From an uncultured Methanosarcinales archaeon (GTDB lineage Archaea > Nanobdellota > Nanobdellia > Woesearchaeales > CAZYIM01), in assembly GCA_964647565.1 (NCBI GenBank), contig CAZYIM010000018.1, positions 1 to 52,518 on the forward strand: a stretch of DNA of 52,518 nt, read 5' to 3'. Within the stretch, counting starts at the first letter, position 1. Each line of letters opens with the position of its first letter. Below the pieces are notes generated by a model. It was not told where the DNA came from. It did not search any database and was given only the letters and a program-made list of their open reading frames with translations. The position numbers were made by a program, and so were the translations under genes. Shown here in pieces: positions 3,963 to 50,071 of this stretch.

Positions 3963-3963
3963 T

Positions 3964-33871: not shown

Positions 33872-34240
33872 ATGACACGTTCACCAGGTACAAAACCAAT
33901 AGATGTCCCTAAAGCAAAAGAAAAGATCGGGTCGTCGATTGTTGCCTATGATGGGACCTTTGCCGAGATTATTTCAGTAAGTTATGATAGTAAGAACCGT
34001 GTTAAAACTAATTTTAAGATCCTGCCAGAAGGTTCAAAAAGAGCCAATGTCTGGGGTTCATTCCAGGGTTCAATTCCCGCTTCATATATAGGGCAGAAAA
34101 TAAAGTTCGAGCATAGGGTTGAGCCATATCTTTGGGGTTTAAGGGAGAGAGTGTCTCAGAAGTTTGATCTGGTTGACAATCAGAATCCTGCAGTCCCTGA
34201 CAACATCTATGCAGATTTTACACAAAAACGTACTAGATAA
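33872..34240 (+). CDS. Hypothetical protein; its 3' end is duplicated downstream
   Basis: 122-aa ORF after a BRE/TATA element (GGAAGATTTAAATA). Confidence 0.7.
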   Translation: MTRSPGTKPIDVPKAKEKIGSSIVAYDGTFAEIISVSYDSKNRVKTNFKILPEGSKRANVWGSFQGSIPASYIGQKIKFEHRVEPYLWGLRERVSQKFDLVDNQNPAVPDNIYADFTQKRTR

Positions 34241-34264
34241 TTTCTTGAGATTTTCGTAGATCTT
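34185..34264 (+). repeat. 80-bp direct repeat A, left copy (gene 3' end plus boundary motif)
   Basis: 73/80 identical to 36304-36383. Confidence 0.9.
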
Positions 34265-34308
34265 GTGGGAAAATGTATTTAACTAACTGTTAATTCTTAT
34301 TGTAGAAT

Positions 34309-35502
34309 TCAACGGCTTGTGGCAGCATTGTATATAGCATTAGCCTGCTTCACAGTCATCATGTCATTGATGCCGTTCTTTTCGAATCTTGCTGGTTCTT
34401 TTGACTCATCGAAAAGGTCTATTCCTGCTTTTTGTGCTAGAAGATCTATTGGTCCGCCTTTTCTGTATATGTTTCCTTGGCTTTCTGTTCCTTCTGATGT
34501 CAGATCATATATTCCTGTCAATCCTTGCTTATTTGCACTTGTTAAGAATTCTTGCTGAGTGAATTTGATCTCTGGTTCAGTTATTACTTCTTCTGCTTGT
34601 TGTGTTGTAGCCACAGGTACTGTTTGGTCAATTCCTTTTTTACCAGTATGGTATTTATAAAACATTATTGCTGATGTTATGAGTATTGCTGAAGCTGCAA
34701 CAATTCCTAGTGCTGCGCCTGCACGAATAAAGTAGTTTCGCTTGCTAGATTTCTGCTCTTTTTGCGGTTCAGTTTCGATTGGTGGAGTGGTAGTTATTTG
34801 AGGGATTGCAGCTGGCTTTTCTCGAAGGTTTTCAAATTTATAAGCAACAAATACTGATTGAGGCTGCTCTGGATAAATATCATCAAGACGTTCGTATACT
34901 GCGTTAGAACCATTTTTGAAAGTAAATAAGCCATCACGCATATATCCGACTTCTTTTTCTATATTTCCAGGAAATGTTACAGTCTTCGGAACCCTCAATC
35001 CCTCCCATTCAAACACAAACGTATCCATGCCCTTTAGAGTATACTCTTTGATTAATTTTTCAACTTTTGCATTATTTGCTTCAGCTCCAATAGGGATCTT
35101 AGTTTGGGATTCTGGGATCAATTCCCTTTTTATGCTTATTCCTGGTATGCGAAGAACTTCTTCTAGTGTTTTTAGAGGTTCCATTTGGTTTAAATGTACA
35201 GAAACTTGTTCCACGACCTGGTTGTCTGCAAGTTTGTACATTGCTGGTGTGCGTAGGTCAGGATCGAAATGCTCAAACATCATGGTTTCTGGATTGATAT
35301 TGCCCAGGTGCATGACTCCGTGTTGTGGAAGTAGTGCCATCATAGCATATTGGACTTGTTTGAACTTGTCTTGGACTGGTTTAGAAATGTGTGCGTAGAC
35401 TGACGCTGGACTTTTCGGGTATGGTCTGATTGCACCTGTTAGTTCCAATACTTTTTCTATCTGGACTGGTATTCTCATTGTTGGTTGTGGCCCTTTTGTC
35501 AT
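34309..35502 (-). CDS. Hypothetical single-pass membrane protein
   Basis: 397 aa; TM AGAALGIVAASAILITSAIMFY after a Pro/Thr linker. Confidence 0.75.
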   Translation of the reverse strand: MTKGPQPTMRIPVQIEKVLELTGAIRPYPKSPASVYAHISKPVQDKFKQVQYAMMALLPQHGVMHLGNINPETMMFEHFDPDLRTPAMYKLADNQVVEQVSVHLNQMEPLKTLEEVLRIPGISIKRELIPESQTKIPIGAEANNAKVEKLIKEYTLKGMDTFVFEWEGLRVPKTVTFPGNIEKEVGYMRDGLFTFKNGSNAVYERLDDIYPEQPQSVFVAYKFENLREKPAAIPQITTTPPIETEPQKEQKSSKRNYFIRAGAALGIVAASAILITSAIMFYKYHTGKKGIDQTVPVATTQQAEEVITEPEIKFTQQEFLTSANKQGLTGIYDLTSEGTESQGNIYRKGGPIDLLAQKAGIDLFDESKEPARFEKNGINDMMTVKQANAIYNAATSR

Positions 35503-35608
35503 AGGTGTGGGAATTAATTTATTCTTTATAAATCTTTTGCTATTTACTCTTGTTCAGTGGTAACGGGGGCGAAAGACTTATAAAGATGTACTAAATAATA
35601 TCATTCCT

Positions 35609-36241
35609 ATGCAGAACATCAATTTATTGGATTATCTTAAAAACTCTTGTAATGAGATACTTGATAGAAACCCGACTGCAAATATTGTAGTTGTAGGCCC
35701 TTCTACCCTTGATAAAGATCCGAGTCTTCTTTGTCTAAGTGAGATGTTGTCAAATACAAAGGCGAATTTAACAGCCATCGAATTTCCAAAAAGCAAATGT
35801 TATAGTGATATTGATCTTCTTAAAAGACAAATAGAAGAAGAATGTAGGAAAGATAAATCTCTAAATAGACCTAAATTTATTGAAACCTCGATATATTCAC
35901 TTGAGAATACATTGGACCAAGATTCAGTTGAAATGATTTATGATCATGCTTCCTTCTATTGGAGTGTTATAAGTTATAGAAATTCTAATGAATTCTCTGT
36001 GGAAGGATGTAATCGGTTGGCTAGAATATACAAGAAACTATGTTCTCCTGCCGGAAGAATCATCATAACAGAAACGTTTAATTCTTTTGAAGAGGGCGCA
36101 TGGAAGGATGGAATCATTGACAGTCTAAAAAAGTGCAGACTAGATATAGAATATTTCAGAATAAAAGATGTTTCGCCTAAATTCACGGAAGTTAATCATT
36201 ATCATTGTAAGACCATGGCAGTTGCATCAAAACCTCTCTAG
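35609..36241 (+). CDS. Divergent class I SAM-dependent methyltransferase-like protein
   Basis: IVVVGP, LTAIE, SVEMIY, L.PAGRIII Rossmann pattern. Confidence 0.5.
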   Translation: MQNINLLDYLKNSCNEILDRNPTANIVVVGPSTLDKDPSLLCLSEMLSNTKANLTAIEFPKSKCYSDIDLLKRQIEEECRKDKSLNRPKFIETSIYSLENTLDQDSVEMIYDHASFYWSVISYRNSNEFSVEGCNRLARIYKKLCSPAGRIIITETFNSFEEGAWKDGIIDSLKKCRLDIEYFRIKDVSPKFTEVNHYHCKTMAVASKPL

Positions 36242-36303
36242 TTATAAGCTTCTTCCAATCAGGACCAGCAACTATTCAACCAAGTGCCATCAAGGAAAAT
36301 AAG

Positions 36304-36383
36304 ATCTTGCAATCCCTGACAGCATCTATGCTGATTTTACACAAAAACGCACTAGATAAGTTCTTGAGATTATCGTAGATCTT
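36304..36383 (+). repeat. 80-bp direct repeat A, right copy (orphan gene-end remnant LAIPDSIYADFTQKRTR*)
   Basis: 73/80 identical to 34185-34264; no upstream start in frame nearby. Confidence 0.9.
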
Positions 36384-36469
36384 CCGGGGATTATTGGTTA
36401 TTTGGCTGGTTTAATTAAATAACAAGCTTTATAAAAAAAGGTGCTTAAGTGAATGACAAGAGGTGCGTA

Positions 36470-37060
36470 ATGAAGAAGACTGTTGTTCTGTTGGTTGTTG
36501 CTGTTTTGCTTTCAAGCATGGTTCTTGCGGTGAATTCTTTTGTGATTAGGTCTGATGAAGAGATAGATGTTTCCAGTCCTTCGTTCCTGGTTTCTTTTGG
36601 TGTTAAGTTGTTTAAGGCAGGCTATAAGACTGAAGCTCTGGACATGTTCAAGATGGCTTTGGGTTCAGAAAAAGTTAAGGCACTGAATAATATAGGAGTT
36701 TATTATATAGACCAGGGAGATAGTGAAACAGCGTTACAGATCTTTGAGAAGGTGCTTTCGATTGATGCTCAATCTGAGGTTGCTTTGGCTAATTCTGCAC
36801 TTATTCATAATGCCAATAAGGATTATTCTTTGGCTATAGTTCCTTTGAGGAAATTGGTTGAGATGTTTCCTGATAATATAATGTATAACTATGATCTTGG
36901 TGTGAATATTGGTTTGAATTTTAGGGAGAATGAAGAAGGGGATCTTTCTGAAGCTGTTGAATATTTTAGAAAGGCTGAGTCGTTGGAACCTGGCTATGAA
37001 CATGCTAAAGAGAATATAGAAGTTCTTACAGAGATAATTGGGCTGATGGAATTATCGTAA
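36470..37060 (+). CDS. Exported tetratricopeptide-repeat protein
   Basis: Signal peptide; ALNNIGVYY...ALQIFEKVL, YNYDLG...AVEYFRKAESLEP. Confidence 0.85.
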   Translation: MKKTVVLLVVAVLLSSMVLAVNSFVIRSDEEIDVSSPSFLVSFGVKLFKAGYKTEALDMFKMALGSEKVKALNNIGVYYIDQGDSETALQIFEKVLSIDAQSEVALANSALIHNANKDYSLAIVPLRKLVEMFPDNIMYNYDLGVNIGLNFRENEEGDLSEAVEYFRKAESLEPGYEHAKENIEVLTEIIGLMELS

Positions 37061-37080
37061 ATCTTCTGGAAATTCTTGGA
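37052..37080 (+). repeat. Boundary motif copy overlapping the TPR stop codon
   Basis: TTATCGTAAATCTTCTGG identical to the copies at 42193 and 42935. Confidence 0.8.
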
Positions 37081-37115
37081 TTAGTTATTTGAAGGGCTGA
37101 TTTATTGAAGTTTCT

Positions 37116-37439
37116 ATGAGTCTGGACATCTTGAAGAAAAGATTGAGAACTTATAGTAAGAAAGATATAAGGTTCAATGAGCCTCACTTCTCGAAGATGC
37201 TTATGTTAAGGGACGGTAGTGAGGAAGAAGTTATTGATTGTTTATTGAATCCTGTAAACCTTGTTTATTATTATACTGAAAAAGGTAAGTTTGGAGATAC
37301 TGTTTATTGCCTTCATTTCAAGATCAGTAATACCAGGACATTAAGATTGCCTGTGATCTTTTCCAAGAAAACTTTATATATCCTAACTATACTAACTTAC
37401 ATACCGAGGTATAGAAAATGGCAAAGCATGGTAAGATAG
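37116..37439 (+). CDS. Putative toxin (DUF4258/RelE-like fold)
   Basis: FNEPHF..ML..R...EEV...L.NP; directly upstream of and overlapping a DUF2283-like gene. Confidence 0.55.
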   Translation: MSLDILKKRLRTYSKKDIRFNEPHFSKMLMLRDGSEEEVIDCLLNPVNLVYYYTEKGKFGDTVYCLHFKISNTRTLRLPVIFSKKTLYILTILTYIPRYRKWQSMVR

Positions 37440-37756
37440 TCAGCTATGATGGTTTGAATGATATTTTTGTAATACATAAAGGATTTTCAGCAGATGAAAA
37501 GTTCAAGGGAAATATAGATGCAGGTGAACTGGTTCTGGATATCTCTACAAAAGGCAGGGTGAGAGGTGTTGAAATCATGCATGCCACTAGTTTCTTTAAA
37601 GATTTTTCAATACCTCAGAAAGTTTTAGAAAAAATAAAAGATGCACAATTCGATGTCAGTTCTAAGCCCAATTCGATTATTCTTAGTTTGATTATCAAAG
37701 GCGTTGAGAAGGAGTTTCCGGTGAAGGTTGCAGTCCCCTTGGAAGTCAGTTCTTGA
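37418..37756 (+). CDS. DUF2283-like protein, putative antitoxin
   Basis: YD..NDIF.I...LVLDI...G.V.GVEIMHATSF. Confidence 0.75.
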   Translation: MAKHGKIVSYDGLNDIFVIHKGFSADEKFKGNIDAGELVLDISTKGRVRGVEIMHATSFFKDFSIPQKVLEKIKDAQFDVSSKPNSIILSLIIKGVEKEFPVKVAVPLEVSS

Positions 37757-37792
37757 GAAAGGTTTAAATATTTCTTTGAATTTCTCGTTTAT

Positions 37793-38335
37793 ATGGATTT
37801 GGTTGAGAAATTAAGGACTTGTTCTATAGATAAAAGGAGAAGTGTTGCTGTAGAATTAGGTAAGACTAGAACTGATCAGGCTGTGTTGGAGTTACAGAAC
37901 ATGGTTGGAGGAGGGGTCAGAGATTATACAGACAGGACTTGCAGGACTCTTTGGTTTAAGAGAGCTATAAGATATACTGTTGAAGAGCAATACATAGCTG
38001 TTTCCGCACTTGGAGAGACAGGGAGAAAAGATGTTCTTGAGTATTTGAAGAAAATGTATACGCCTTCGGTACAGGTTGAAGACAGGGAGAGCCATACTGT
38101 GCAGGGAGTGGATGGTATTGATGATTATTGGAAGGCTGAGGTCTATAGATATCCTCACGCTCAGATAGTATTTGCACAGAACTTAAGGTACGAGGTTAAT
38201 CTGACCAGTTCTAGCTGGGGTGCTGAGACAGAAAGGACTCAGGATCTGATAGAGAAAGATCGGGAAAGAATTCTAAAAAGCAGGAAATCACATCAAGTGT
38301 TTAGGGCAGCGATAGAGAAGTTGGAGCAAGTTTAA
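37793..38335 (+). CDS. HEAT-repeat-like hypothetical protein
   Basis: RRSVAVELGK...AVLEL and AVSALGETG...LEYL. Confidence 0.6.
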   Translation: MDLVEKLRTCSIDKRRSVAVELGKTRTDQAVLELQNMVGGGVRDYTDRTCRTLWFKRAIRYTVEEQYIAVSALGETGRKDVLEYLKKMYTPSVQVEDRESHTVQGVDGIDDYWKAEVYRYPHAQIVFAQNLRYEVNLTSSSWGAETERTQDLIEKDRERILKSRKSHQVFRAAIEKLEQV

Positions 38336-38411
38336 TTCTTATTGGGTGTTTTTGAAAAAAGTTCACATTCAAAATAGAAATATTTATTAAAAAGCTCATT
38401 ATGATAGCTAT

Positions 38412-39413
38412 ATGCCAAAAAGGATATTAATTACAGGTGGATGTGGATTTTTAGGGCAATACTTAGTCAATGATTTGTTAAATAGGTTTAAAGATAGTTA
38501 CATCAGGATATTGGATCTTAGACCAAACACCCACCACATCTTCAATTTTAACGATAATTCTAGTGTTGAAATCTTATTAGATAAAGATATCTGTAATTAT
38601 GAATCTATTAAAGATGATTTTAAGGGTATTGATGTTGTTATACATCTTGCAGGCATAGTTTCGTTTTCTTTGAAGGATAAGGATCTATTGGAGAGAGTGA
38701 ATATTAACGGAACAAAAAATGTTATCAGGGCTGTTATGGCAAACAAAATCCAAAATTTCATCCATATTAGTTCTGTAGCCGCATTAGGATATAATGACGA
38801 TAAAGATGATCCTATCGAAGAAAATTTTAAGTTTGATTGGAGAATTGCACAGAGTAAGAAGAAATATTATATGCTAACAAAACACTTAGCTGATGTTGAA
38901 ATTGAGAAGTCCAAGAAATTGAATGCTGTAATTCTATATCCTGGCTTAATGTTCGGTCCTGGCGATATGAATAATTCTGCTAAGCTAATAAATGCGATGA
39001 AGGAAAAAAGAATCCCTTTCAATATGCCCGGAGGAACAAATATTATTGATGTGAGAGATGTTTCGGCAGGAATAACTGCGGTAGTTGAGCACAATTTAAA
39101 AAAAGGCCATTATCTATTATCTGGACATAACTTAAAATTTTCAGAAGTCAATCAGATTATTGCAGATGAAGTTGGCGTAAAACCTCCGAAAAAGACTCTG
39201 CCCAAATTTCTAAGTCCCATACTTTATAGAATGCTCCTGTTTGCTGAAACGTTATCGAGGAAGAAGATTCAACTTACAGCAGATAATATTGATTCAGCAT
39301 TCAAATTTAGATATTTTAATAATTCTAAGGCTAAGAAAACCTTAAGTTGGAGACCCAAGATCAATTTTAGAAAAACAGTAAAAGATACGGTTAGATGGTT
39401 AGATTCGAAATGA
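38412..39413 (+). CDS. NAD-dependent epimerase/dehydratase (extended SDR)
   Basis: ITGGCGFLG, VIHLAG, NINGT, HISSVAA, YMLTK, IDVRDV. Confidence 0.92.
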   Translation: MPKRILITGGCGFLGQYLVNDLLNRFKDSYIRILDLRPNTHHIFNFNDNSSVEILLDKDICNYESIKDDFKGIDVVIHLAGIVSFSLKDKDLLERVNINGTKNVIRAVMANKIQNFIHISSVAALGYNDDKDDPIEENFKFDWRIAQSKKKYYMLTKHLADVEIEKSKKLNAVILYPGLMFGPGDMNNSAKLINAMKEKRIPFNMPGGTNIIDVRDVSAGITAVVEHNLKKGHYLLSGHNLKFSEVNQIIADEVGVKPPKKTLPKFLSPILYRMLLFAETLSRKKIQLTADNIDSAFKFRYFNNSKAKKTLSWRPKINFRKTVKDTVRWLDSK

Positions 39414-40546
39414 GTGATGTTATTGTTCTGAAAACTAAGGAAGATCAAATAGAAGAGAACATAAATAAAATTTTCGAACTAGCCGGAGGGATTGATAAAT
39501 ATATCCAAAAGCAAGACAAGGTTTTGATTAAACCAAATTTTATTGTTCCAAAAACTTCTTCAACAGGCGTTACAACAGATAGCAGAATTATTGAAGCTGT
39601 TATAAAAATTATCTTAAAACAAGACGCCATTCCGATTATCGGTGAAGGCGTTCCATATTCTCATAACGCAGATGAAACATTTAGAAGATTGGGCATAGAT
39701 ACAATAGGAAAAAAATACAACATACAAATAACCAATATGGATAAATATATGCCTAAATCTGTGAAAATTAAAAATCCCATTGTTATAGCGGAGATTCCTA
39801 TTTCCAATCTGGTTTTTGAAGTTGATAAGATAATTAACTTGCCTGTCATGAAGACACATACTCAAACAACTGTAACATTGGGCATGAAAAACCTTAAAGG
39901 ATGTATTATTGGAAAAGAGAAATTAAGGCTACACCATCTAGGCTTGAGTGCGGGCATCGTTGATATAAATACTGTGATTAAACCAACATTCACTATTATT
40001 GACGGTATTATAGGTTTGGAAGGCAATGGTCCCACAAATGGAATTCCAAAAAGAATGGATTTATTATTGGGTTCTGATGATATTTTGGCATTGGAAATCA
40101 TAACTTCAAAGATCATGGGCTTTGATCCATATTCAATTAAGCACATTTATTTATCAAAGAATAAAAATATTGGAGAATATGATATTAAGAATATTGAAGT
40201 CATTGGAGCTAAAATTGAAGAAGTTCAGGATAAATTTTTATTGCCTGTATTAAAAATAAGCAAATGGTTCGGTCCTTTAATTTTGGGTCATATTTTGCCA
40301 TTTTTATCTAAATGCGGAATTGACATCAATAAGATCTCACAAAACTTTTTTAACTATCTTATGCCCTATCCTACGTTTAGAGGGAATTGCACAGGATGTG
40401 CAAAATGCATTAAGAATTGCCCTACCGGAGCCCTTAGTTTTAAAGGAAAGTCGCGTCTGGTTGTTGATAAGAATAAATGTATAAAATGTTATGTTTGTGA
40501 TGAAGTGTGCGTCCATAATAATATTCATATAAAGGGAAGAGATTGA
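39410..40546 (+). CDS. DUF362 protein with C-terminal 2x[4Fe-4S] domain
   Basis: VLIKPN, INLPVMKTH, LGMKNLKG, IIDGIIGLEGNGP; CxxCxxCxxxCP and CxxCxxCxxxC. Confidence 0.9.
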   Translation: MSDVIVLKTKEDQIEENINKIFELAGGIDKYIQKQDKVLIKPNFIVPKTSSTGVTTDSRIIEAVIKIILKQDAIPIIGEGVPYSHNADETFRRLGIDTIGKKYNIQITNMDKYMPKSVKIKNPIVIAEIPISNLVFEVDKIINLPVMKTHTQTTVTLGMKNLKGCIIGKEKLRLHHLGLSAGIVDINTVIKPTFTIIDGIIGLEGNGPTNGIPKRMDLLLGSDDILALEIITSKIMGFDPYSIKHIYLSKNKNIGEYDIKNIEVIGAKIEEVQDKFLLPVLKISKWFGPLILGHILPFLSKCGIDINKISQNFFNYLMPYPTFRGNCTGCAKCIKNCPTGALSFKGKSRLVVDKNKCIKCYVCDEVCVHNNIHIKGRD

Positions 40547-40618
40547 ATGTGTTCTAGGCAGACAGCCGAAGTCAGAATACCATAACATATTTAAAATCAA
40601 AAAATAATATGTCCTGTT

Positions 40619-42181
40619 ATGTTAAAAAAGCTGGTGTTTGTTTTATTAGTTGTGCTATTATCTTCTGTGGTTTTTGCTGAGCATCTGGAATGGTATGCTC
40701 AAACCGATTGTTATGAAAAATCACGGCCAAATATTGAGCATTGCCAGCAGCAGTATGAAAAGTTACGTAAAGCGCATTATGATGATTGTGTTAATCCCTC
40801 TAGTGATGATTGTTACCAATACTGCCAACAGTTCATTGATGCGCACAGATTGGAGTGTGAACAGAAATGCATGGATGAATTATCATTTGCGCATTTTAGA
40901 TATATGGACTGTTTGGAAGGGAAGGCAAGCTCATACAAAGGTGTTTATGATTATGATGAAGATTACGATCTGATTCCAATTGATGATAAACCAGTGTTCG
41001 ATGTCCAGACGCTGACTGACGATGGCTGGAAATGTTATGATGGGAATACAGGAAAAGAAAAACCTTGGAATGATTGCAATCCAGCTCCTTTAAATGGTTC
41101 CAGGGTAGCTGATTATGTAGTCGGAACTGTTAAATCCACTCAAGGGAAAGCAGAGATCCTGAGGCAAGGGTCTGTTGCACTTGTTACAACAGATCTAGAA
41201 TTGCATAAAGGAGATGTTATCCATACAGGAGGGGATGGAGGTATTGAGATTGCCACTGAAGACGGTATGGTCAAGCTTGGTACAAATACAACTGTTGAAT
41301 TTGTAGGTCTTGAGTTTGATCCTGTTCCAAGCCGTAGGATAAAACCTCCGCCAGAGGCTCCCTGGGCTCCAGATCCCGGGTCATTCAAATATGAAATAAA
41401 TAATACTGCCTTTTGGAAAGGGATTGCAGATGATTTGAAAAAACATGTTCCATCTATCTTAGATGCTTGTATTGCCAGTATTGTTGGTGTTCCAGACCCA
41501 CTGAATCCAGATATCCCGGTTCCCATCCCTGCTATCGATTGTTTCAGGAAGCCGATCTTGATTCTTGTTGATGGAAGCCTATGGACCAAGACCAAACCTC
41601 CGGCCAAATATCCTGCTAACTTTTCCAAGGAATCGATCATGACTCAAAGTGTTTTAATCAATCATATGGCTACAGAGTTCACTGTTGAAGTGGCTGATGA
41701 TGGCACAACCACTGTGACTACGCTGGATGGCAGCGTCTTAGTAACAGACCTGGCCAGCAGGAAGAATGTTGTGGTCGATGTAAATGAGCGGCTCACTGTG
41801 ACTTCAGAGCAAGTGCTGACTAAGATAGATCCTGAATCAATAGATAAATGGTGGATTCAATCTACTGACTTTCCAAAAAAAGAAATATTGTTGTTCTTTT
41901 CCACATTATTCCTGGTAACTATTGTTTTTGTCGGTTTGATTGCTTTGATTATCCGAAAAAAGACAACTGCTTGGGGTGTAACCAGCTTAATCTTTGGCAT
42001 TATCGGTATCTTGGTTTTTATTGCGCCATATTTTGGATTGCCTTTAAGTGTTGGCGCGATATGGTTTTCTAGGATACAGAAGAAAAAGAAACATACTAAT
42101 ATAATGACAGCAGGCTTTGTCTTAGGCATTATCGGCACTATTCTTAATGTACTTCTTGCAATAGTGTATTTTATGATGTAG
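40619..42181 (+). CDS. Surface/membrane protein with Cys-rich N-terminus, FecR-like beta domain and C-terminal TM helices
   Basis: Signal peptide; L.KGDVIHTG.DG...DG.VKLG.NT.V; TEFTVEV.DDG.T.VTTLDGSV; 3 C-terminal TMs. Confidence 0.75.
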   Translation: MLKKLVFVLLVVLLSSVVFAEHLEWYAQTDCYEKSRPNIEHCQQQYEKLRKAHYDDCVNPSSDDCYQYCQQFIDAHRLECEQKCMDELSFAHFRYMDCLEGKASSYKGVYDYDEDYDLIPIDDKPVFDVQTLTDDGWKCYDGNTGKEKPWNDCNPAPLNGSRVADYVVGTVKSTQGKAEILRQGSVALVTTDLELHKGDVIHTGGDGGIEIATEDGMVKLGTNTTVEFVGLEFDPVPSRRIKPPPEAPWAPDPGSFKYEINNTAFWKGIADDLKKHVPSILDACIASIVGVPDPLNPDIPVPIPAIDCFRKPILILVDGSLWTKTKPPAKYPANFSKESIMTQSVLINHMATEFTVEVADDGTTTVTTLDGSVLVTDLASRKNVVVDVNERLTVTSEQVLTKIDPESIDKWWIQSTDFPKKEILLFFSTLFLVTIVFVGLIALIIRKKTTAWGVTSLIFGIIGILVFIAPYFGLPLSVGAIWFSRIQKKKKHTNIMTAGFVLGIIGTILNVLLAIVYFMM

Positions 42182-42191
42182 CTGAAGGTTT

Positions 42192-42265: not shown

Positions 42266-42345
42266 CTAAAAAAATCAAAGATTTTTAGGCTTCGAAAATT
42301 TATATTTTCGAAAAGTTTAAATATCAGATGGTATCTATTGGTATC

Positions 42346-42591: not shown

Positions 42592-42593
42592 TT

Positions 42594-42890: not shown

Positions 42891-42933
42891 TTTATGGCTC
42901 TTTCCTCTTTTAATTATTGCATATAACATCGGG

Positions 42934-43007
42934 GTTATCGTAAATCTTCTGGGAAATGTTGGATTAAATATTTTAATGTAGGATTATAGATGTTAATATG
43001 ACCGAAA
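42934..43007 (+). repeat. 74-bp direct repeat B, right copy
   Basis: 67/74 identical to 42192-42265. Confidence 0.9.
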
Positions 43008-43021
43008 AACTTAAATATCTA

Positions 43022-43052
43022 AACGATATTTCGTGTATTAACGATATCTCGT
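43022..43052 (+). promoter_or_regulatory. Tandem near-palindromic operator pair
   Basis: AACGATATTTCGT (43022) and AACGATATCTCGT (43040) between the TATA box and ATG 43058. Confidence 0.6.
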
Positions 43053-43057
43053 TTAAA

Positions 43058-43213
43058 ATGGCGACCTTCACTGTATCTATACCCAAAGAACTCAAAGAAG
43101 AGATGGATCAATACCCCGAAATTAATCTGGCTGAATATCTTAAAAAAAAGTTCAGTTTACGATTAAAGGAATTGAGCAAGTTTGAAGAGCTTAGGAACAA
43201 GGGGGCGATATGA
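43058..43213 (+). CDS. Small RHH-like protein
   Basis: MATFTVSIPKELKEEM..YPEIN. Confidence 0.7.
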   Translation: MATFTVSIPKELKEEMDQYPEINLAEYLKKKFSLRLKELSKFEELRNKGAI

Positions 43214-43500
43214 TGACATCTGTGACGCTTTCTGTGACTGATGAGTTCAAAGAGCAGTTGAAGCAGTTTTCCTGGGTAAATTGGAGTGAGATCGCTAAAG
43301 AAGAGACCAGGAAGAAATTAATATTTGAAAAATTCTTAAAGACTCGAAAAGTTTCTTCAGAAGATTGGAAGTTCTGCGAGAAGATTGACTGGCACCCTGT
43401 TGATGAGCTTCCGTTGAAGGAAGAATATGTTGAAAAATTGAATAAGATAAGGAAGGGAAAATTCGTCAAAGTTGATTCTGTAGCAGATTATTTCAAATGA
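43210..43500 (+). CDS. RHH-like antitoxin
   Basis: VTLSV.DEFKEQL..F.WVNWSEIA; C-terminal LKEEYVEKLNKIRKG; ATGA overlaps on both sides. Confidence 0.75.
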   Translation: MMTSVTLSVTDEFKEQLKQFSWVNWSEIAKEETRKKLIFEKFLKTRKVSSEDWKFCEKIDWHPVDELPLKEEYVEKLNKIRKGKFVKVDSVADYFK

Positions 43501-43757
43501 GATATCATATTGAGATTTCAAGTTCTTGCGATGTAAGCATAAAGAGAGCAATAGCTAAAAATCCGGTGCTGAAAAAAGCAATTCGTAAGAAAATGGAGCA
43601 GATAGTTGAGAATCCAGAACGATTTAAACATTTGAGGTATGGACTGAAAGGTGAGAGACGGGTTCATATTCTTAAGAGCTTTGTGTTGAGGTATGAAGTT
43701 AAAAAAAATGTGATTAGATTTCTTTATTTCGATCATCATGATGAGATTTACAGGTGA
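43497..43757 (+). CDS. RelE/YafQ-family toxin
   Basis: KKMEQI.ENP..FK.LRY.LKG.RRVHI.KSFVL.Y...FDHHDEIY. Confidence 0.85.
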   Translation: MRYHIEISSSCDVSIKRAIAKNPVLKKAIRKKMEQIVENPERFKHLRYGLKGERRVHILKSFVLRYEVKKNVIRFLYFDHHDEIYR

Positions 43758-43762
43758 GGTTC

Positions 43763-44362
43763 TTAATTCTCAACCGGTATTGTTTGTGGTTTAGGAACCT
43801 TGTGCGGAACTAGTGATGAATAAATATGTTTAATTCCGGAAAACACGCTTTTTTTAGGGGGCTTTGGTAAGTTAGCTTTTGATAAATATTTAGCATAGAC
43901 ATTTGGTATCCATGCTAAACTTTGAATCATTATTGCGTTTCCTATATTTTGCAAAGCATAAGAAGAAGTTTCAGCCCCTACTTTATTAATCAAATATCCT
44001 GTACCGAAAAGAACAGGGATCGTTATCAAATTCAATAATCTATTAACCTTTCCAGAATCTCTTAATTTGCCTTGGGTTTCATATCGTATTTCTTCTTCTA
44101 TGGGCGATTCTTTTTTTGGAGGGACCAGGAACCCACTAAAAGAGACAAAATTACCATATATACCGAGGAATAGATTATACTTGAGTGTTAAAACACTTCC
44201 AACTCCGGATAATAAGTAACTGTGCTTTACTTGTTCTGATCCTGATCTTCCGGTGACGTGTTGGTATGCCTCTCCTATTTTACCAGCACTTTTAATTAGA
44301 AAATTATCTATTTTTGTTACTAATGTTCCATCTTCCGGGAAAAACTTATCTTCGAGTGACAT
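43763..44362 (-). CDS. Hypothetical membrane protein
   Basis: 199 aa with several hydrophobic segments. Confidence 0.65.
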   Translation of the reverse strand: MSLEDKFFPEDGTLVTKIDNFLIKSAGKIGEAYQHVTGRSGSEQVKHSYLLSGVGSVLTLKYNLFLGIYGNFVSFSGFLVPPKKESPIEEEIRYETQGKLRDSGKVNRLLNLITIPVLFGTGYLINKVGAETSSYALQNIGNAIMIQSLAWIPNVYAKYLSKANLPKPPKKSVFSGIKHIYSSLVPHKVPKPQTIPVEN

Positions 44363-44459
44363 GATCAGTGAAAACTATGTTGGAGTATATAAAATTTACG
44401 ATTTGTTGTGACTGCATAGTGGCGAAAAATTTATAATGTCTGCTTAAATTTCTATTTAT

Positions 44460-45086
44460 ATGAACGAATTAGTGACTTTTGAACAGGCAAGAGCAGATGT
44501 AATGCTTAGGCAGCAATATCTGGATTCTCTTCTTAAACAAGCTTCAGATAGTGTTCAGGCTTTTGTATATGATGATGGGACCAAGATGGAGGCACAGGTT
44601 CACAAACTTGTCGATGAAGGATACATAAAAGCAGAGGAGTTGCAACCCAGACTAGAAGCAGGACGGAAAGCAGATTTTCAATTTGTTACACCGATTTCAA
44701 GTGAATTGATAGGATCAGGTAAGCAAAGCCCAATTTTTGTTTATGATGGGGCTTTTAATATGTATGGTGTTGAAGAATTATTTCTTAATTGTATCTTAGA
44801 TCATGAAGGTAAACATGTAGATGATATAAAGGATGGGATGCAGTTACGTGATGGGAATGTGATAGATCAGGATAATATTGGTTTATTGCAAGAAGTTACA
44901 CAAATAAACTTGCTTGAAGCCACAGCATACAGGAGGCAACTTGATAAGGCAGCTGGAAGGGGTGTGCAAAAAGAGGATTATCTATCGCATATCAATTTCA
45001 TATATCAAGGGATTGTAGGCACACTTGAAAGAATCTCTGTAAAGAATGATTTTGAAAGAAAAGCTATTAATTCTGAGATATATTGA
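44460..45086 (+). CDS. Hypothetical protein with HExxH motif
   Basis: DHEGKH ... LEATAY. Confidence 0.6.
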   Translation: MNELVTFEQARADVMLRQQYLDSLLKQASDSVQAFVYDDGTKMEAQVHKLVDEGYIKAEELQPRLEAGRKADFQFVTPISSELIGSGKQSPIFVYDGAFNMYGVEELFLNCILDHEGKHVDDIKDGMQLRDGNVIDQDNIGLLQEVTQINLLEATAYRRQLDKAAGRGVQKEDYLSHINFIYQGIVGTLERISVKNDFERKAINSEIY

Positions 45087-45153
45087 TGAGCAGGTTTTGA
45101 GTTTCTTCTTTAATACAAATGTTTATATAAAATTTCAGCTTTCTGATTTCAAT

Positions 45154-45450
45154 ATGGCACTTACTGAGATGCAGGAAGGGGATTTGATCGTTAAGAAAGA
45201 AAGCAACTATACAATAGAGAAGCTTACAGATGATTTTAGGCATTGGGTTTCAAAACGATTAAATGGTTCTGTAGGTTCATTTGTAAAGGAGATCGGTCTG
45301 GGATATGAACTGATATTTGGAGTTGGTTATAGGGATTATACAACTGTGGGCAAAGTAAAGATAGAAGCCAATGGTGTTGCAAGGATCAATGTTAATCCTC
45401 GATTTTCTGATAGGTTGCCTCTTAATGAATATAAGCCGTTTCTAAGGTGA
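45154..45450 (+). CDS. Hypothetical protein
   Basis: ATG 45154 about 25 nt after TTTATATA. Confidence 0.6.
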   Translation: MALTEMQEGDLIVKKESNYTIEKLTDDFRHWVSKRLNGSVGSFVKEIGLGYELIFGVGYRDYTTVGKVKIEANGVARINVNPRFSDRLPLNEYKPFLR

Positions 45451-45502
45451 AGGCAGACCATGTCAGAAAGGTTTATATAGTTTATATTTATTCTATCTGG
45501 AT

Positions 45503-45868
45503 ATGGCAGAATATGTTGTTGATGGTAAAACAATAGAACTTGATAATAGTAAGACATATTTAGATTTCTTTCGGCAAGATAGAAAAGGACAACTTGTTGA
45601 AATAGATTTAGAATTGATGCTTACAGCAATTCAGTCTGGTGAACTTGCAGTTGATGACAGCTTAAAAGAACATATGAAATACTTAAAAAGATGGGAGATA
45701 GATGCTCCTAGGAAAAGAAATCTTCGTGAAATGAGGAGAAGTGGAGTTACAGTTGCGACAACTGATGCTTTGTTTGAACAAGACGGCGGAGAAGAAATAA
45801 TAGATAATCTTGAGAATACTGGAGTTTTTGCAGCTTATTTCTTAAAAGAAGTTTATGGGATAAAATAG
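45503..45868 (+). CDS. Hypothetical protein
   Basis: 121-aa ORF after a BRE/TATA element (GAAAGGTTTATATA). Confidence 0.65.
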   Translation: MAEYVVDGKTIELDNSKTYLDFFRQDRKGQLVEIDLELMLTAIQSGELAVDDSLKEHMKYLKRWEIDAPRKRNLREMRRSGVTVATTDALFEQDGGEEIIDNLENTGVFAAYFLKEVYGIK

Positions 45869-45957
45869 ATTGCTTCTGTCTCTTAAACTAGTGTTAAATT
45901 ATTTTGGATGTGATTGTGCAGAAAGTTTAAAAAGATTAGAGTTGATGATTATTCTTT

Positions 45958-46500
45958 ATGGATCAGCCTGACATGGTTTCAATGGACAGTATATATAACA
46001 ATAAGCCTTCTAAAGCTCCCAATAAAAAAAAGATTATAATCTCTATTGTGGTTGCGATTGTAATAATATTGATAGTTATAGTAAGTATTAGTTTTATCTC
46101 AGATTGGATATGGGCTTCTAAACTACAAAAAGCAGTTGAAAATGAAGATCTAAGCTATTGTGAGGATCTTAAAAAAGGAAAAGATATCTGTATTACTTTA
46201 ATTGCAGTTCAAAAAAAGAATCATATGCTATGTTTAAATCTCACTGATGAAGGTGAACAAAATGTATGTATGATGACTAATGCAATTCTTACTGAAAGGC
46301 TTAATGTTTGTGACAAATTTAGGGAAAACCAGACTCTTATATCTACATGTTACATAAAATATGCAGAAAGACATGATGATCCTCATGCATGTATGACACT
46401 AAAACGTAAGACAAGCAACGATAGTCTATTTGATGAGTGCATGGTAATGTTCGAAGACAGGTTCTATTTTGAAAGCGGAATATTGAAGCGGAAAGAGTGA
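45958..46500 (+). CDS. Membrane-anchored protein with Cys-pair helical repeats
   Basis: TM helix, then about 25-aa repeats D...C..l......C...A. Confidence 0.75.
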   Translation: MDQPDMVSMDSIYNNKPSKAPNKKKIIISIVVAIVIILIVIVSISFISDWIWASKLQKAVENEDLSYCEDLKKGKDICITLIAVQKKNHMLCLNLTDEGEQNVCMMTNAILTERLNVCDKFRENQTLISTCYIKYAERHDDPHACMTLKRKTSNDSLFDECMVMFEDRFYFESGILKRKE

Positions 46501-46505
46501 AGGCA

Positions 46506-46585
46506 GAGCTTAAAAAGAGAATAGCTTAAAGCCTGGGTGTTCCCAGCCAGGTGGTTGGGTGTAGATGAAATAGTCTGCTTCTTTT
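46506..46585 (+). repeat. 80-bp direct repeat C, left copy (orphan minus-strand gene end)
   Basis: 79/80 identical to 49992-50071. Confidence 0.95.
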
Positions 46586-46608
46586 TTCCAAGAAATTAAG
46601 ATTTTAAT

Positions 46609-47004
46609 TTATGATTTTTCTGAATGATATTTTTGAGATAATAGATCTAGAACATAGTTAGAATTATCGCTATTTTCTTGATGCAATTTCCCTTCTATTG
46701 TTTCTAAAAAAGTTGATGTAAACGCTGGTAAAGCATAATGGAATCCTGATGCACGATTTAACAAATAGTACAAACTAGTGTGGGTGTTTTGGGAGGTTCC
46801 GGTAAAATCGACATTTGTCCTTACATATTCATACATCTTGGTTCCTGGTACGTGCTCTGTTTTTACCAATGTTTCACTGACTGTCGATAGTCTTATATCT
46901 GAATAAAGAATCCAAGCGTCCCATCTACTCCCAACAATGTCTAAAATATTCCATATTTTTCCCAGATATTTTCTTGTATCTTCTTTATCCATCTTAATCA
47001 TCAT
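46609..47004 (-). CDS. Hypothetical protein
   Basis: 131-aa ORF overlapping the upstream gene. Confidence 0.6.
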   Translation of the reverse strand: MMIKMDKEDTRKYLGKIWNILDIVGSRWDAWILYSDIRLSTVSETLVKTEHVPGTKMYEYVRTNVDFTGTSQNTHTSLYYLLNRASGFHYALPAFTSTFLETIEGKLHQENSDNSNYVLDLLSQKYHSEKS

Positions 47005-47434
47005 TAGGGGTTGTATATTCTATGTAGGAGCCGTTAAATTTACAATTTTTGAGCCCGCACCACTTATCGATGTAAGTGTCCATATGTTCTTTTTTATAGA
47101 AGACATGATAGCTTGTGTCTGCGTATTTAAATTTAAACCAGTTTGGACTGGCAACAGCAGAATCTACGTGAAAGTTAGTAACAACCCTATCAATTGTATG
47201 TTCTTCTGGAGGATGAATTAATATATAATCAAACCTATCATTGGATAGATATGCATATATAGAGAGATCCTCGATTTTAAAGTCATACTTCTTTTTTGTA
47301 TGATCATATGTTGGGAAAATAAGTAGATTACTTACCGCTTCAATTCCATCCAATAGTTTTTTATTCGCTTCCCTGCCAGTCAATATGTTTAAGCTAATAT
47401 CTTTTAATTCGTGATTCATAGTTATGGGGAACAT
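46994..47434 (-). CDS. Hypothetical protein
   Basis: 146-aa ORF divergent from TrmB. Confidence 0.6.
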   Translation of the reverse strand: MFPITMNHELKDISLNILTGREANKKLLDGIEAVSNLLIFPTYDHTKKKYDFKIEDLSIYAYLSNDRFDYILIHPPEEHTIDRVVTNFHVDSAVASPNWFKFKYADTSYHVFYKKEHMDTYIDKWCGLKNCKFNGSYIEYTTPNDD

Positions 47435-47516
47435 AGACCAATATATTAAATTATGTTACATCATTTGTTGTTACAAAACAGAAAACTTATAAAGACAAAT
47501 AAGTTAACTATATCAA

Positions 47517-48245
47517 ATGGAGGAGAGTATATTAAAAGAAATAGGGCTTACAACTTCAGAAATAAAGGTATATATTTCCCTGTTAAAGACCGGTCCGGCA
47601 AGGGCATCTGAAGTAATAGATAAATCAGGCTTACAAAATCCAGTAGTTCATAGAGCATTTCATTCGTTAATCAACAAAGGTATTGTTTCTTATTCAATTT
47701 CAGGAAAGATTAAATTCTATCATCCAATAGATCCGACACAATTATTAAAAATTTTGGAAGAGAAAAAAAATCGTTTATCTAAAATCATTCCTGAATTAAA
47801 AAATCTATTTGAATATAAAAGTGATAATACTAAGGCTACAATTCATCAAGGGAAAAGAGGTGTAAGAGAGTTACTTAATTATTTACTTGAAAATACTGAG
47901 GGTGAGATTCTATCCTATGGTGCACCTGAAAAATCTATAGATGTTTTAGGGGATTATTTTTGGGATTCTTTTCATAAAAAAAGAATAAAGAAAAAAATAT
48001 TTGCACGAATGATATTTCATGATTCTGCATCAAAAAGAGCAAATGAATTAAATAAAATCAATATAACAAATATTAGGACCACTGATAAAGATTTTGAAGA
48101 ATTAGTTGAAACAATAATTACAAAAGATAAAGTAGGGATAATAATCTATTTAGATGATCCGCTTGGCATATTAATTGATGATGAATTAGCTGCAAAATCT
48201 TATCAGAATTTCTTTGAAATCTTGTGGAAAGGTTGTGAAAGATAG
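47517..48245 (+). CDS. TrmB-family transcriptional regulator
   Basis: LKEIGLTTSEIKVYISLL...LINKGIVSY...SYQNFFEILW. Confidence 0.9.
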   Translation: MEESILKEIGLTTSEIKVYISLLKTGPARASEVIDKSGLQNPVVHRAFHSLINKGIVSYSISGKIKFYHPIDPTQLLKILEEKKNRLSKIIPELKNLFEYKSDNTKATIHQGKRGVRELLNYLLENTEGEILSYGAPEKSIDVLGDYFWDSFHKKRIKKKIFARMIFHDSASKRANELNKINITNIRTTDKDFEELVETIITKDKVGIIIYLDDPLGILIDDELAAKSYQNFFEILWKGCER

Positions 48246-48307
48246 AAAAATACCTTATAAGACTATAAAAGAGGGAGAAGTAATAGTTATAGAACGAGTG
48301 TGGGGTG

Positions 48308-49024
48308 TTACATAGACTTCTTTGCTGTTTTCCAAAGAAGCTCAAAATGTTTCTTAAAGTTATCTGAAAGTTGCTTAGACTTTACTCTAATAGCAACCAT
48401 TTCAGGATCAAAGATTAAATTTAACATTATGTTATCATAACACAAATTAACAGTAGTGCTCCCGAACTCTCTAGATAAATATTTTATTTTGTAAAATTTT
48501 GATGGCGGATTAACAACGCCCTCTGTATAGATAAATCTGTGATTTATTTTGTATTTAGTTTGTTCTCTAAAATAATATTTGGCAAATTCAGGAAGATATT
48601 TTCTTAATTGTCCTGCTATACTATATCCAACAACTTCTTCTTTTTTGAGAAGAATATCTTTGAGAGCAGACTTTAATCCCTGCTTTCCTTTAAAAACTTC
48701 AACAATAACTTTTTCATCAATTTGCGATTGGACCTTCTTAAGTTCTGGAATTAGTTTAGAAATTGAGCTTTCTTTTTCTTTTAGGTAAGTCAGAATATTT
48801 TCTGGATCAGCAGCACGAAAGAACTGCTTGTTTTCTTTGATTAAGTAAGAAACAAGCCCTTTCTCTTTTAGTTTTTCTAAGCTGTCATAGATATTCGTCC
48901 TATGTAATCCAGAACTTTGACTTATTTCGGCCACTGTTGCTTCTCCGAGCTTGAGCAGAGTTAAATAAGTTTTAGCTTCGCTATCTGAAAGTCCAATCTC
49001 TTTAAGTTGTTTAGGGTTAATCAT
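48308..49024 (-). CDS. TrmB-family transcriptional regulator
   Basis: LKEIGLSDSEAKTYLTLL...HRTNIYDSLEKLKEKGLVSY...FKKHFELLW. Confidence 0.9.
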   Translation of the reverse strand: MINPKQLKEIGLSDSEAKTYLTLLKLGEATVAEISQSSGLHRTNIYDSLEKLKEKGLVSYLIKENKQFFRAADPENILTYLKEKESSISKLIPELKKVQSQIDEKVIVEVFKGKQGLKSALKDILLKKEEVVGYSIAGQLRKYLPEFAKYYFREQTKYKINHRFIYTEGVVNPPSKFYKIKYLSREFGSTTVNLCYDNIMLNLIFDPEMVAIRVKSKQLSDNFKKHFELLWKTAKKSM

Positions 49025-49103
49025 TTGTTTTAGTTTGATTTGTTCATATTTAAATGTTTCGTCTTTTTTTAGACAAATCGTATTTATATACTTTCTTAAT
49101 TAA

Positions 49104-49117
49104 CCACTTTAAAGTGG
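49104..49117. promoter_or_regulatory. Perfect palindrome between the TATA box and start codon
   Basis: CCACTTTAAAGTGG overlapping the GGAGG ribosome-binding site. Confidence 0.5.
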
Positions 49118-49130
49118 AGGTAAAATTAAA

Positions 49131-49982
49131 ATGGAACCGCTAAAGCAAATGATTCAAGGAATGGCAGGACAATCAAATCCTCAATTAAAAATAGATAGGA
49201 CAGGACTACTCGTTATAGATGTGGTTAATGATGGTAATGATGATAATGGGTTTTTCAAAACTAAACTAGGATTTGATATTTCTTTATTGCAGGAAATTGA
49301 ATCGAATGTTATTTCATTAGTTGAAACAAGTAAAAAGATGGGACTATCTGTAATTGGTGTCCAAGCAATTTATGATTTTGGTTATATTCCCGAACCAATG
49401 CGTGAGCGTTTTGAAGCTATGGGAATTCAGGGTGGACTCGCCCCTAAAGGTGCTTGGGGTTCTGATATAATTCCTCAAGTAAGAGACGCAGGATTAGATC
49501 TTGTTTTAGTAAAATCGCATTATTCTGCTTTTGCACCAGGAAGAACTTTCGCTTTTCGTTCTGGAAATCCAGTTTTAGAAGAATATATGCGATTAGCTTC
49601 TTCAGAAGATTCAAGACTTCGAGAAGAGGGAAAAAAAACAATGTTGGAGTATTTTGCAGAAGCACAAGTTAGTAGAGAAGATATTGACTCTCATTTAAAT
49701 CAAGGGGGTGTTGTCAGTCTAGATAATTATCTAAGAGGTAAAGACATTGATACTTTAATTGTTACAGGAGCATCTACGCATGTTTGTGTTAATAGCACGA
49801 TAGCAGGAGCATCAGAAAGGGGATATAAAATATTTGAACCAATTGATGCAGTTGCTGCTGAGGGAGTTCCTAATGAAGGACATTTGAGACATTTTGTTTA
49901 TGCTAGTAATGATGGAATGTTTAAAGCAGAATTGACGACAACAGAGAAGCTGTTGGAGGCCTTAAAACCTCATACTTCTTAG
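49131..49982 (+). CDS. Isochorismatase / cysteine hydrolase family protein
   Basis: LLVIDVVND, KSHYSAF, LIVTGASTHVCVNST, ASERGY; roughly 60-aa insertion. Confidence 0.9.
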   Translation: MEPLKQMIQGMAGQSNPQLKIDRTGLLVIDVVNDGNDDNGFFKTKLGFDISLLQEIESNVISLVETSKKMGLSVIGVQAIYDFGYIPEPMRERFEAMGIQGGLAPKGAWGSDIIPQVRDAGLDLVLVKSHYSAFAPGRTFAFRSGNPVLEEYMRLASSEDSRLREEGKKTMLEYFAEAQVSREDIDSHLNQGGVVSLDNYLRGKDIDTLIVTGASTHVCVNSTIAGASERGYKIFEPIDAVAAEGVPNEGHLRHFVYASNDGMFKAELTTTEKLLEALKPHTS

Positions 49983-49991
49983 TTTTAACAG

Positions 49992-50071
49992 GAGCTTAAA
50001 AAGAGAATAGCTTAAAGCCTGGGTGTTCCCAGCCAGGTGGTTGGGTGTAGATGAAATAATCTGCTTCTTTT
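49992..50071 (+). repeat. 80-bp direct repeat C, right copy
   Basis: 79/80 identical to 46506-46585; the one change is synonymous (GAT/GAC) in the minus-strand frame. Confidence 0.95.

Follow-up and report, generated by a model that had tools for sequence, protein, structure and literature searches.

Contig CAZYIM010000018.1 (52,518 nucleotides, nt), attributed to an uncultured archaeon and analysed over its full length as the window, carries three pairs of long direct repeats, D2, D4 and D3, each of which encloses a different small group of genes (Table 1). We tentatively interpret these pairs as recombination scars left by small modules without a recombinase of their own in a hypervariable accessory stretch of the genome, a reading that we favour with reserve. 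The observations on which it draws are the repeats, the orphan gene ends, a truncated target gene, non-homologous cargo, and the absence from the window of recombinase domains and of the hallmarks of transposons and integrons.

Three direct-repeat pairs enclose unrelated genes

Comparison of the whole window with itself by BLAST gave D2, D4 and D3 scores of 114, 103 and 141 bits, respectively, and the sole other strong self-matches came from tandem paralogues at positions 2186–4995. Among 20 composition-preserving shuffles of the window, 17 yielded no match at E ≤ 1e-3 and the remaining three yielded one match each, with a top score of 50 bits. The initial annotation had described three independent pairs of 74–80 bp. 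Its positions and spacings proved accurate and far above chance, the spacings (2119, 742 and 3486 bp) being also the islet sizes when cargo is counted with one repeat, but the D2 repeats measure 85 nt rather than 80 nt. Moreover, three lengths (74, 80 and 85 nt) are too few to establish any preferred size, and the pairs are not independent, since D2 and D4 belong to one family of five core sites described below. When one gap is allowed, self-BLAST extends the D2 alignment to about 90 nt; a further extension to about 135 nt by permissive local alignment was not relied upon, because D3 was likewise stretched into evident noise.

In all three pairs, a gene end adjoins one copy whereas the second copy is orphaned; the repeated unit is a gene tail in D2 and D3 and an upstream module with its start codon in D4. 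The earlier proposal that the repeats are gene 3' ends with a displaced orphan copy was thus borne out for the D2 and D3 tails, with the correction that the D3 gene is itself a 5'-truncated remnant. The cargo blocks have no relation to one another or to the sequence outside them; the toxin-antitoxin (TA) modules behind the two D4 copies, for instance, are non-homologous and show no significant mutual similarity (E values of 0.079 and 2.0). A simple tandem duplication of TA operons was ruled out on the same ground. The D4 repeat itself consists of an upstream region, an ATG and 7 nt, and holds no gene tail.

D2 copy 1 includes the end of P0004, an open reading frame (ORF) that had no match in Pfam, NCBIfam, PHROGs or PADLOC. 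In a database of 5.8 billion proteins P0004 matched only itself, and its protein cluster comprises two members on three contigs, of which the longest measures 52,518 nt. The orphan tail in D2 copy 2 is immediately preceded by an in-frame stop codon at 36300–36302. The coding tails of the two copies differ at five positions, two synonymous and three non-synonymous, a number uninformative on selection. The two cargo ORFs, P0002 and P0006, belong to no family in Pfam, PHROGs, NCBIfam or PADLOC and have no PDB sequence match at E ≤ 0.5. No usable Atlas match was obtained for P0002 or P0005, and a single-sequence fold of P0006 was discarded for its predicted local distance difference test score (pLDDT) of 43.

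The D3 repeat and the remnant of gene G

D3 copy 2 lies at the tail of a remnant of a gene, here called G, whose sole database match is P0007, a 5'-partial ORF of 110 amino acids (aa) that is 100% identical and lies on a contig of 2064 nt. An exhaustive HMMER search with P0007 retrieved 12 proteins, eight of them at E ≤ 1e-10, and the full-length ones align by their C-terminal halves only. When six proteins of the family were used as tblastn queries, residues 111–207 mapped to 49999–50277 and residues 184–207 to 46513–46578, all six queries matched at 46513–46587 (E values from 4.6e-5 to 0.018), and the N-terminal half of G was absent from the whole window. The structural model of the family member P0008 (pLDDT 86.9) is a TIM barrel whose top PDB match is 5tcb, the PelA hydrolase domain (E value of 7.6e-8, template modelling score of 0.64). 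These protein-level matches indicate that D3 is a genuine coding tail present in two copies, one on a 93-codon pseudogene and one alone.

The minus-strand ORF of 173 aa at 49996–50517 is a chimera, the first part of which is antisense to a 63-aa ORF and to the MazG-like gene that adjoins G. The 2064-nt contig carrying P0007 has its end close to position 50326 of the window, some 50 nt away from the point at which G is truncated. On the other side of the islet, D3 copy 1 starts 5 nt past the stop codon of a plus-strand ORF (45958–46500).

Two further features were noted within the D3 cargo. The Pfam model of the isochorismatase-family ORF was matched in two separate stretches (approximately residues 18–134 and 196–277), as if the protein bore an insertion, and this ORF has many relatives, with 62–88% identity, on short metagenomic contigs. 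In addition, 18 nt at 47388–47405 show 89% complementarity with the beginning of the D3 repeat (46513–46530 and 49999–50016), which may be chance in AT-rich sequence.

D2 and D4 share a five-site core

The D2 and D4 repeats have in common a core of 18–28 nt, TTATCGTARATCTTCYGG, which recurs at a third location, 37052. The five core sites (34251, 36370, 37052, 42193 and 42935) are all on the plus strand and span 8.7 kb; this count compares with 0.08 expected, and none of 100 shuffles attained it. An nhmmer profile built from the five cores recovered all of them at E ≤ 1.5e-13, with no further match under E = 1 across the window. The onset of similarity among the sites is abrupt and coincides with the left edge of the core, and the arms around the core are reshuffled: the D2 copies consist of a left arm plus the core, and the D4 copies and the site at 37052 consist of the core plus a right arm, the similarity of the D4 copies being the core plus 45 nt rightward. 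Furthermore, a tetratricopeptide repeat (TPR) gene at 36449–37060 takes its last two codons and its stop codon from the first 9 nt of core site 3.

The three D4-family copies have a common layout, in which the core is followed at 64, 63 and 63 nt by an ATG and a TATA-like box is centred 25–28 nt before that ATG (25–26 nt in the D4 copies). At the site at 37052, the ATG (37116) opens an ORF of 107 aa. The archaeal TATA box lies about 25–27 nt upstream of the transcription start, and the spacing found here therefore lets the D4 module be read as a promoter whose transcripts would start at or near the ATG. As in re-used promoters, the genes that follow these highly similar upstream regions (91% between the D4 copies, 77–78% with the third member) are non-homologous; no homology links the ORF behind 37052 to the one behind 42935. 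From this layout we infer that the D4 family may be a promoter module re-used before three unrelated TA-like operons.

Ordinary local evolution, the main rival reading, would explain part of this picture, with the D4 family as a copied promoter or 5' leader and with D2 and D3 as leftovers of tandem paralogues whose bodies were deleted or overwritten. The constant core-to-ATG distance (63–64 nt) at three of the five sites, the TATA-like box 25–28 nt before the ATG and the orientation of all five core sites along their downstream genes agree with such an origin, as do the tandem paralogues that the contig carries at 2186–4995, the demonstrable decay of G, and a short upstream repeat at 21999/22536 that resembles a shared operator. 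Re-used promoters before non-homologous genes are also known from the available text of PMC3575422, where highly similar upstream regions precede non-homologous genes as the three copies of the D4 family do here, although that process would leave the orphan coding tails of D2 and D3 unexplained. Copying some 70 nt in front of unrelated operons needs recombination anyway, so that local evolution accounts for the function of the module and not for its origin. The D3 copies, moreover, are 99% identical and end sharply 4 nt past the G stop codon, beyond which everything differs, a pattern hard to reconcile with the decay of an old paralogue, and what lies ahead of D2 copy 1 is the tail of a convergent gene, which would leave a promoter there without a target. 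On balance, we consider local evolution an unlikely explanation, and we retain the insertion scars as the preferred one.

The reshuffled arms also raise the distinctly improbable scenario that the core is recognized by a recombinase whose gene lies elsewhere in this genome, and which would capture and shuffle small promoter-bearing modules (TA pairs, a lipoprotein gene and a six-gene block) downstream of gene ends. Such an arrangement would be an integron-like cassette platform in an archaeon, with double-stranded, non-hairpin sites, and D3 would be a further place at which this activity, or one like it, took effect.

Some additional properties of the core were recorded. Read on the minus strand, the core encodes ...FPEDLR followed by a stop, which falls at core positions 1–3 in four of the five sites, several differences between sites being synonymous in that frame. 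The plus frame (YRKSSG...*) uses identical third positions, and hence the coding strand of the core, if any, is undecidable; no intact gene in the window ends as the core frames do. By eye, two half-sites can be made out in the core, imperfect direct copies spaced by about 11 nt (AAATCTTCTGG / RAAWTNTTGG), which would suit a protein-binding site. A weak look-alike of the junction family (61%), undetected by nhmmer, lies at 30661–30711, between the stop codon of the ORF 30318–30662 and a MazE/PIN pair (30675–31417), and may be a sixth, decayed member or chance.

Table 1. Coordinates of the repeats, core sites, cargo and adjoining genes in the window
Feature	Position	Strand	Description
D2 direct repeats	34185–34269 / 36304–36388	+	85 nt, 9 mismatches, 89.4% identity, spacing 2119
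D4 direct repeats	42192–42265 / 42934–43007	+	74 nt, 7 mismatches, 91% identity, spacing 742
D3 direct repeats	46506–46585 / 49992–50071	-	80 nt, 1 mismatch, 99% identity, spacing 3486
P0004 ORF	33872–34240	+	122 aa, no known family; last 18 codons and stop inside D2 copy 1
D2 copy 1	34185–34269	+	P0004 tail, 10-nt spacer and core
Core site 1	34251–34278	+	TTTTCGTAGATCTTGTGG...
D2 cargo	34270–36303	mixed	P0002 and P0006, both without family
P0002	34309–35502	-	397 aa; hydrophobic stretch, by eye one transmembrane helix
P0006	35609–36241	+	210 aa
D2 copy 2	36304–36388	+	orphan P0004-like tail (18 codons), spacer and core
Core site 2	36370–36397	+	a TPR lipoprotein-like gene follows, its likely ATG (36470) 100 nt downstream
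Core site 3 and third D4-family member	37052–37119	+	77–78% identity to the D4 copies over 68–69 nt
D4 copy 1	42192–42265	+	core, TATA-like TATTTTAA, ATG at 42256 with just 10 codons; orphan head
Core site 4	within D4 copy 1, at 42193	+	
D4 cargo	42266–42933	+	ribbon-helix-helix (RHH)-type antitoxin-like and RelE-like toxin ORFs
RHH-type antitoxin-like ORF	42328–42591	+	weak DUF6364/DUF6290 matches (Pfam)
RelE-like toxin ORF	42594–42890	+	phrog_1213 RelE-like, 1.8e-5
D4 copy 2	42934–43007	+	same upstream module; ATG at 42998 opens a 71-aa VapB-like ORF
Core site 5	within D4 copy 2, at 42935	+	
DUF2683 ORF	43210–43500	+	behind D4 copy 2
RelE/YafQ ORF	43497–43757	+	behind D4 copy 2
D3 copy 1	46506–46585	-	orphan: last 24 codons, stop and 4 nt of gene G
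D3 cargo	46586–49991	mixed	two small proteins without assigned function, two TrmB-family regulators, isochorismatase-family ORF
P0074	46609–47004	-	D3 cargo; no family or only sub-threshold match
P0075	46994–47434	-	D3 cargo; no family or only sub-threshold match
TrmB-family regulator	47517–48245	+	D3 cargo
TrmB-family regulator	48308–49024	-	D3 cargo
Isochorismatase-family ORF	49131–49982	+	D3 cargo; 3' end 13 nt from the G stop
D3 copy 2	49992–50071	-	tail of G remnant
Gene G remnant	49996–50277	-	C-terminal 93 codons of a TIM-barrel family of roughly 210–226 aa, PelA hydrolase-like
MazG-like gene	50431–50778	+	Pfam PF12643, 5.3e-17; adjoins and overlaps G on its truncated 5' side

Repeat structure and assembly

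The longest exact runs between the two copies are 17 nt in D2, 29 nt in D4 and 67 nt in D3, and the mismatches of D2 and D4 are dispersed. These short runs and dispersed mismatches tie each D2 and D4 copy to its own flanks and make a haplotype mis-join implausible there. Joins between strain haplotypes, which the initial annotation had named as one outcome that would undo its proposal, were consequently excluded for D2 and D4, and the longer run leaves D3 uncleared.

An artefact in which strain haplotypes, or a small circle and the chromosome, were threaded at shared sequence would find its opening at D3, and the window is an entire metagenomic contig. At small k, the 67-nt exact run could form a repeat node, the end of another contig falls near 50326, beside D3, and with two entries and two exits the same graph would arise from the integrated form and from an empty site plus a 3486-bp circle, two states that this run renders indistinguishable from sequence. 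At D2 and D4, unique k-mers link the copies to their flanks at the usual final k. Even at D3, all four junctions must be real molecules, and the alternative of an empty site and a circle amounts to an excised islet. We thus regard an artefact as a very improbable source of the repeats.

Recombinase search and known site types

No integrase, transposase, Cas1 or reverse transcriptase was identified by Pfam among the 76 ORFs of at least 70 aa on the 52.5-kb contig, and PHROGs and NCBIfam scans of 52 ORFs (28 + 24), mostly those without clear Pfam assignment, revealed no recombinase. The earlier statement that integrase, transposase and reverse transcriptase are missing accordingly holds over this range of ORFs. 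Some 40% of the ORFs could not be assigned to any family, and the negative covers recognizable recombinase domains rather than very divergent enzymes. Among the nine cargo ORFs none bears a recombinase domain, and four of them (P0002, P0006, P0074 and P0075) have no family or sub-threshold matches only. P0001 (339 aa, 32755–33774, minus strand), which diverges from the array, contains an HExxH motif and is not integrase-like. With the ORF at 32016–32747 (plus strand) it forms a convergent, tail-to-tail pair without family, in which each ORF has an HExxH motif (HEIGH, HEGLH), as in zinc metalloproteases.

The attC sites of integrons are defined by the inverse core sites R'' (RYYYAAC) and R' (GTTRRRY), located 55–145 nt apart with complementary flanks. 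Four R''/R' pairs were found on both strands of the window, of which none had at least 15 of 22 complementary positions and none lay at a junction (shuffle mean 0.2). All eight repeat and junction sequences folded no better than their shuffles (z values between -1.45 and +0.77, with 14 or more of 200 shuffles folding as well as each sequence), Rfam returned no match even at E ≤ 1, and the IntI domain (PF00589) was absent from the 76 ORFs. An integron-type cassette array without integrase, that is, a cluster of attC sites lacking integron integrases (CALIN), a type reported for archaeal metagenome-assembled genomes, could account for same-strand junctions between small modules, for the TA cargo and for junctions at or over stop codons, and most archaeal integrons are CALINs according to the available text of PMC9668308. 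Faced with the missing hairpins, complementary pairs, Rfam match and IntI, and with cargo of two to six genes in mixed orientation with their own promoters, this identification is scarcely credible.

Other known site types fared no better. A tRNA target was dismissed, as no tRNA lies within the window. Insertion sequences, miniature inverted-repeat elements and other transposons were rejected because no inverted repeat joins the cargo ends, the duplications measure 74–85 nt and there is no transposase. Casposons carry a Cas1 casposase and terminal inverted repeats and make a target duplication of about 14–15 bp; neither a Cas1 domain nor terminal inverted repeats at the cargo ends were found. 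The Xer/dif site is 28 bp long, with two inverted arms of about 11 bp around a spacer of 6–8 bp, and elements exploiting it (IMEX, pdif) were rejected because the arm matches of the cores are at background level (5–8 of 11). A defence island was also discarded, the PADLOC matches being at the level of helix-turn-helix domains only, as was a known plasmid or virus, since neither megablast nor blastn matched 33800–50200, 46400–50300 or 34100–37200 in two collections.

Proposed insertion scars and their relation to known elements

In the insertion reading that we prefer, a circular DNA bearing a copy of a gene end would recombine once with the chromosome, through an attP x attB reaction or a Campbell-type single crossover. 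The gene would be kept whole, or its end retained, and an orphan copy of that end would remain at the far side of the cargo. Since the cargo has no recombinase, the reaction would have been supplied from outside. It might be a site-specific recombinase encoded elsewhere or since lost, in which case the islets would be decayed or satellite integrated elements resembling CIMEs (cis-mobilizable elements), or recombination by the host itself, whether homologous or between short repeats, acting on 74–85 bp of homology; the evidence favours neither. At the five-site junction, modules would start with the core, and the junction would be both their left terminus and a re-used promoter, as the sharp left edge, the TATA-like box that follows it and the ATG at a fixed 63–64 nt together suggest. 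The TPR gene that borrows its stop codon from the next core is what insertion into a gene 3' end would produce. What we infer here is the direction of events (a gain of DNA and not a loss), the existence of a circular intermediate, the enzyme involved and the role of the module as a promoter.

Composition was counted in favour of insertion for two islets. The D3 and D4 cargoes are unusual relative to the contig mean, with GC contents of 0.319 and 0.292, and in tetranucleotide content only 4 and 12, respectively, of 200 size-matched random segments deviate as far. There is also an indirect hint that D3 may be polymorphic between contigs. P0007 is 5'-partial on its 2064-nt contig, which places about 1.7 kb of that contig beyond the G stop codon, and the protein cluster of the isochorismatase-family ORF has one member on one contig, namely the window.

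Several points weigh against insertion. The protein-cluster table gives the longest contig per cluster only, so that the 2064-nt contig could carry a homologue less than 90% identical, as in the two-contig cluster of P0022 (85%). Insertion is deduced from the geometry of the repeats alone, and the target genes are weak ones, P0004 having a self-match only and G being already a pseudogene. The identity of 89–91% between the D2 and D4 copies could equally fit old local duplications, and the D2 cargo is ordinary in composition (GC content of 0.369; in tetranucleotide content 140 of 200 size-matched random segments deviate as far). A search for the core in 185,579 representative genomes, a set that includes neither the source genome nor any close relative, gave 13 single matches at chance level, all in unrelated bacteria, and hence there is no documented family of such sites. 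Finally, the five cores show no dyad symmetry above background (5–8 of 11 arm matches, against a mode of 6–7 in 2000 random windows), which makes the core unlike the classical core site of tyrosine recombinases.

The initial annotation had presented the locus as a candidate system, not recognized as a described one in these archaea, which repeatedly adds cassettes. Such a system is not supported, and the pairs are read here as insertion scars instead. Insertions at gene ends with flanking repeats are described for archaea (PMC6563490), and repeat-flanked elements without a recombinase for bacteria (PMC5704250, PMC5426353). A repeat-flanked insertion at gene ends, with or without a recombinase, is therefore of a known kind, and new machinery was not shown. 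For a five-site family of non-hairpin junctions in front of unrelated TA operons in an archaeon, a non-exhaustive literature search found no description.

Of 68 thaumarchaeal integrated mobile genetic elements (iMGEs), 14 occupy the 3'-distal part of a protein gene; the stop codon can come from the inserted element, and insertion sites are used again in tandem (PMC6563490). The islets resemble these archaeal iMGEs in their flanking direct repeats, which in D2 and D3 overlap gene 3' ends, one being the gene end that keeps the gene whole, as well as in the element-supplied stop codon and the tandem re-use. They differ in that the iMGEs, of the tyrosine-recombinase type, encode an integrase, usually along with genes for replication or of viruses, and reach several to tens of kb, whereas here 0.7–3.4 kb without a recombinase are found, and in the length of the att sites (8–69 bp in the iMGEs, 74–85 bp here). 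CIMEs retain attL and attR without an integrase in bacteria (PMC5704250), and the islets likewise keep att-like repeats, as putative att sites, and lack integration and transfer genes. The arrays of several att copies in direct orientation also recall streptococcal islands of integrative and conjugative or mobilizable elements with CIMEs, which grow by site-specific accretion, but CIMEs were defined in bacteria beside a related integrase-bearing element (PMC5704250), and none is visible on this contig.

The H47 island of E. coli moves between imperfect repeats without a recombinase of its own and without RecA (PMC5426353). It shares with the islets a small size, extensive imperfect flanking direct repeats and the lack of a recombinase, its movement being host-dependent; unlike them, it is bacterial, measures 13 kb and has been shown experimentally to excise, whereas the islets are known from sequence alone. 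In archaeal integrons, TA proteins make up 10.5% of the functionally annotated cassette proteins (PMC9668308). The succession of small modules, the TA cargo and the lack of an integrase on the contig are common to the islets and to such integron arrays or CALINs, but the islets have neither attC sequence nor hairpin, and their modules are multi-gene, of mixed orientation and provided with their own promoters.

Other features of the contig

Three adjacent paralogues of 267, 323 and 343 aa occupy 2186–4995 on the minus strand; Pfam, PHROGs and NCBIfam assign none of them to a family. Their nucleotide identity is 67–88% and their periods are 973 and about 1035 nt, and they represent an ordinary tandem gene triplication. 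A direct repeat of 35 nt (86%) at 21999–22033 and 22536–22570 lies upstream of the ORF 22079–22507 and of an NMT1-type ABC binding-protein gene at 22593. Both genes adjoin a divergent TrmB-family regulator (21215–21952), and the repeat is probably a shared operator. Among the 52 ORFs scanned outside Pfam, NCBIfam named the one at 11212–12423 (minus strand), which Pfam missed, as a KamA-like radical-SAM aminomutase, at 1e-61 but short of the equivalog cut-offs. The cumulative GC skew climbs with little interruption between about 15 kb and the end of the contig (52518), and the genes there are mostly on the plus strand.

An archaeal origin of the contig is suggested by three TrmB-family regulators, a match to a Sulfolobus-type VapB model and one relative named as 'archaeon' at 54% identity. 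A fourth indication is that sigma-70-like sites are no commoner than in shuffles (53 against 69.1 ± 9.5).

Implications for gene flux in archaea

How small accessory genes, especially TA pairs, enter and leave archaeal chromosomes without visible mobile machinery is poorly understood. If only old scars or re-used promoters are present, the locus would be a piece of an ordinary flexible genomic island. If, on the other hand, the islets were inserted and excised through 74–85-bp gene-end repeats by functions of the host or acting in trans, they would be a simple example, in an uncultured archaeon, of gene flux that needs no recombinase of the islets' own, and the five-site core would become a candidate recombination or regulatory site.

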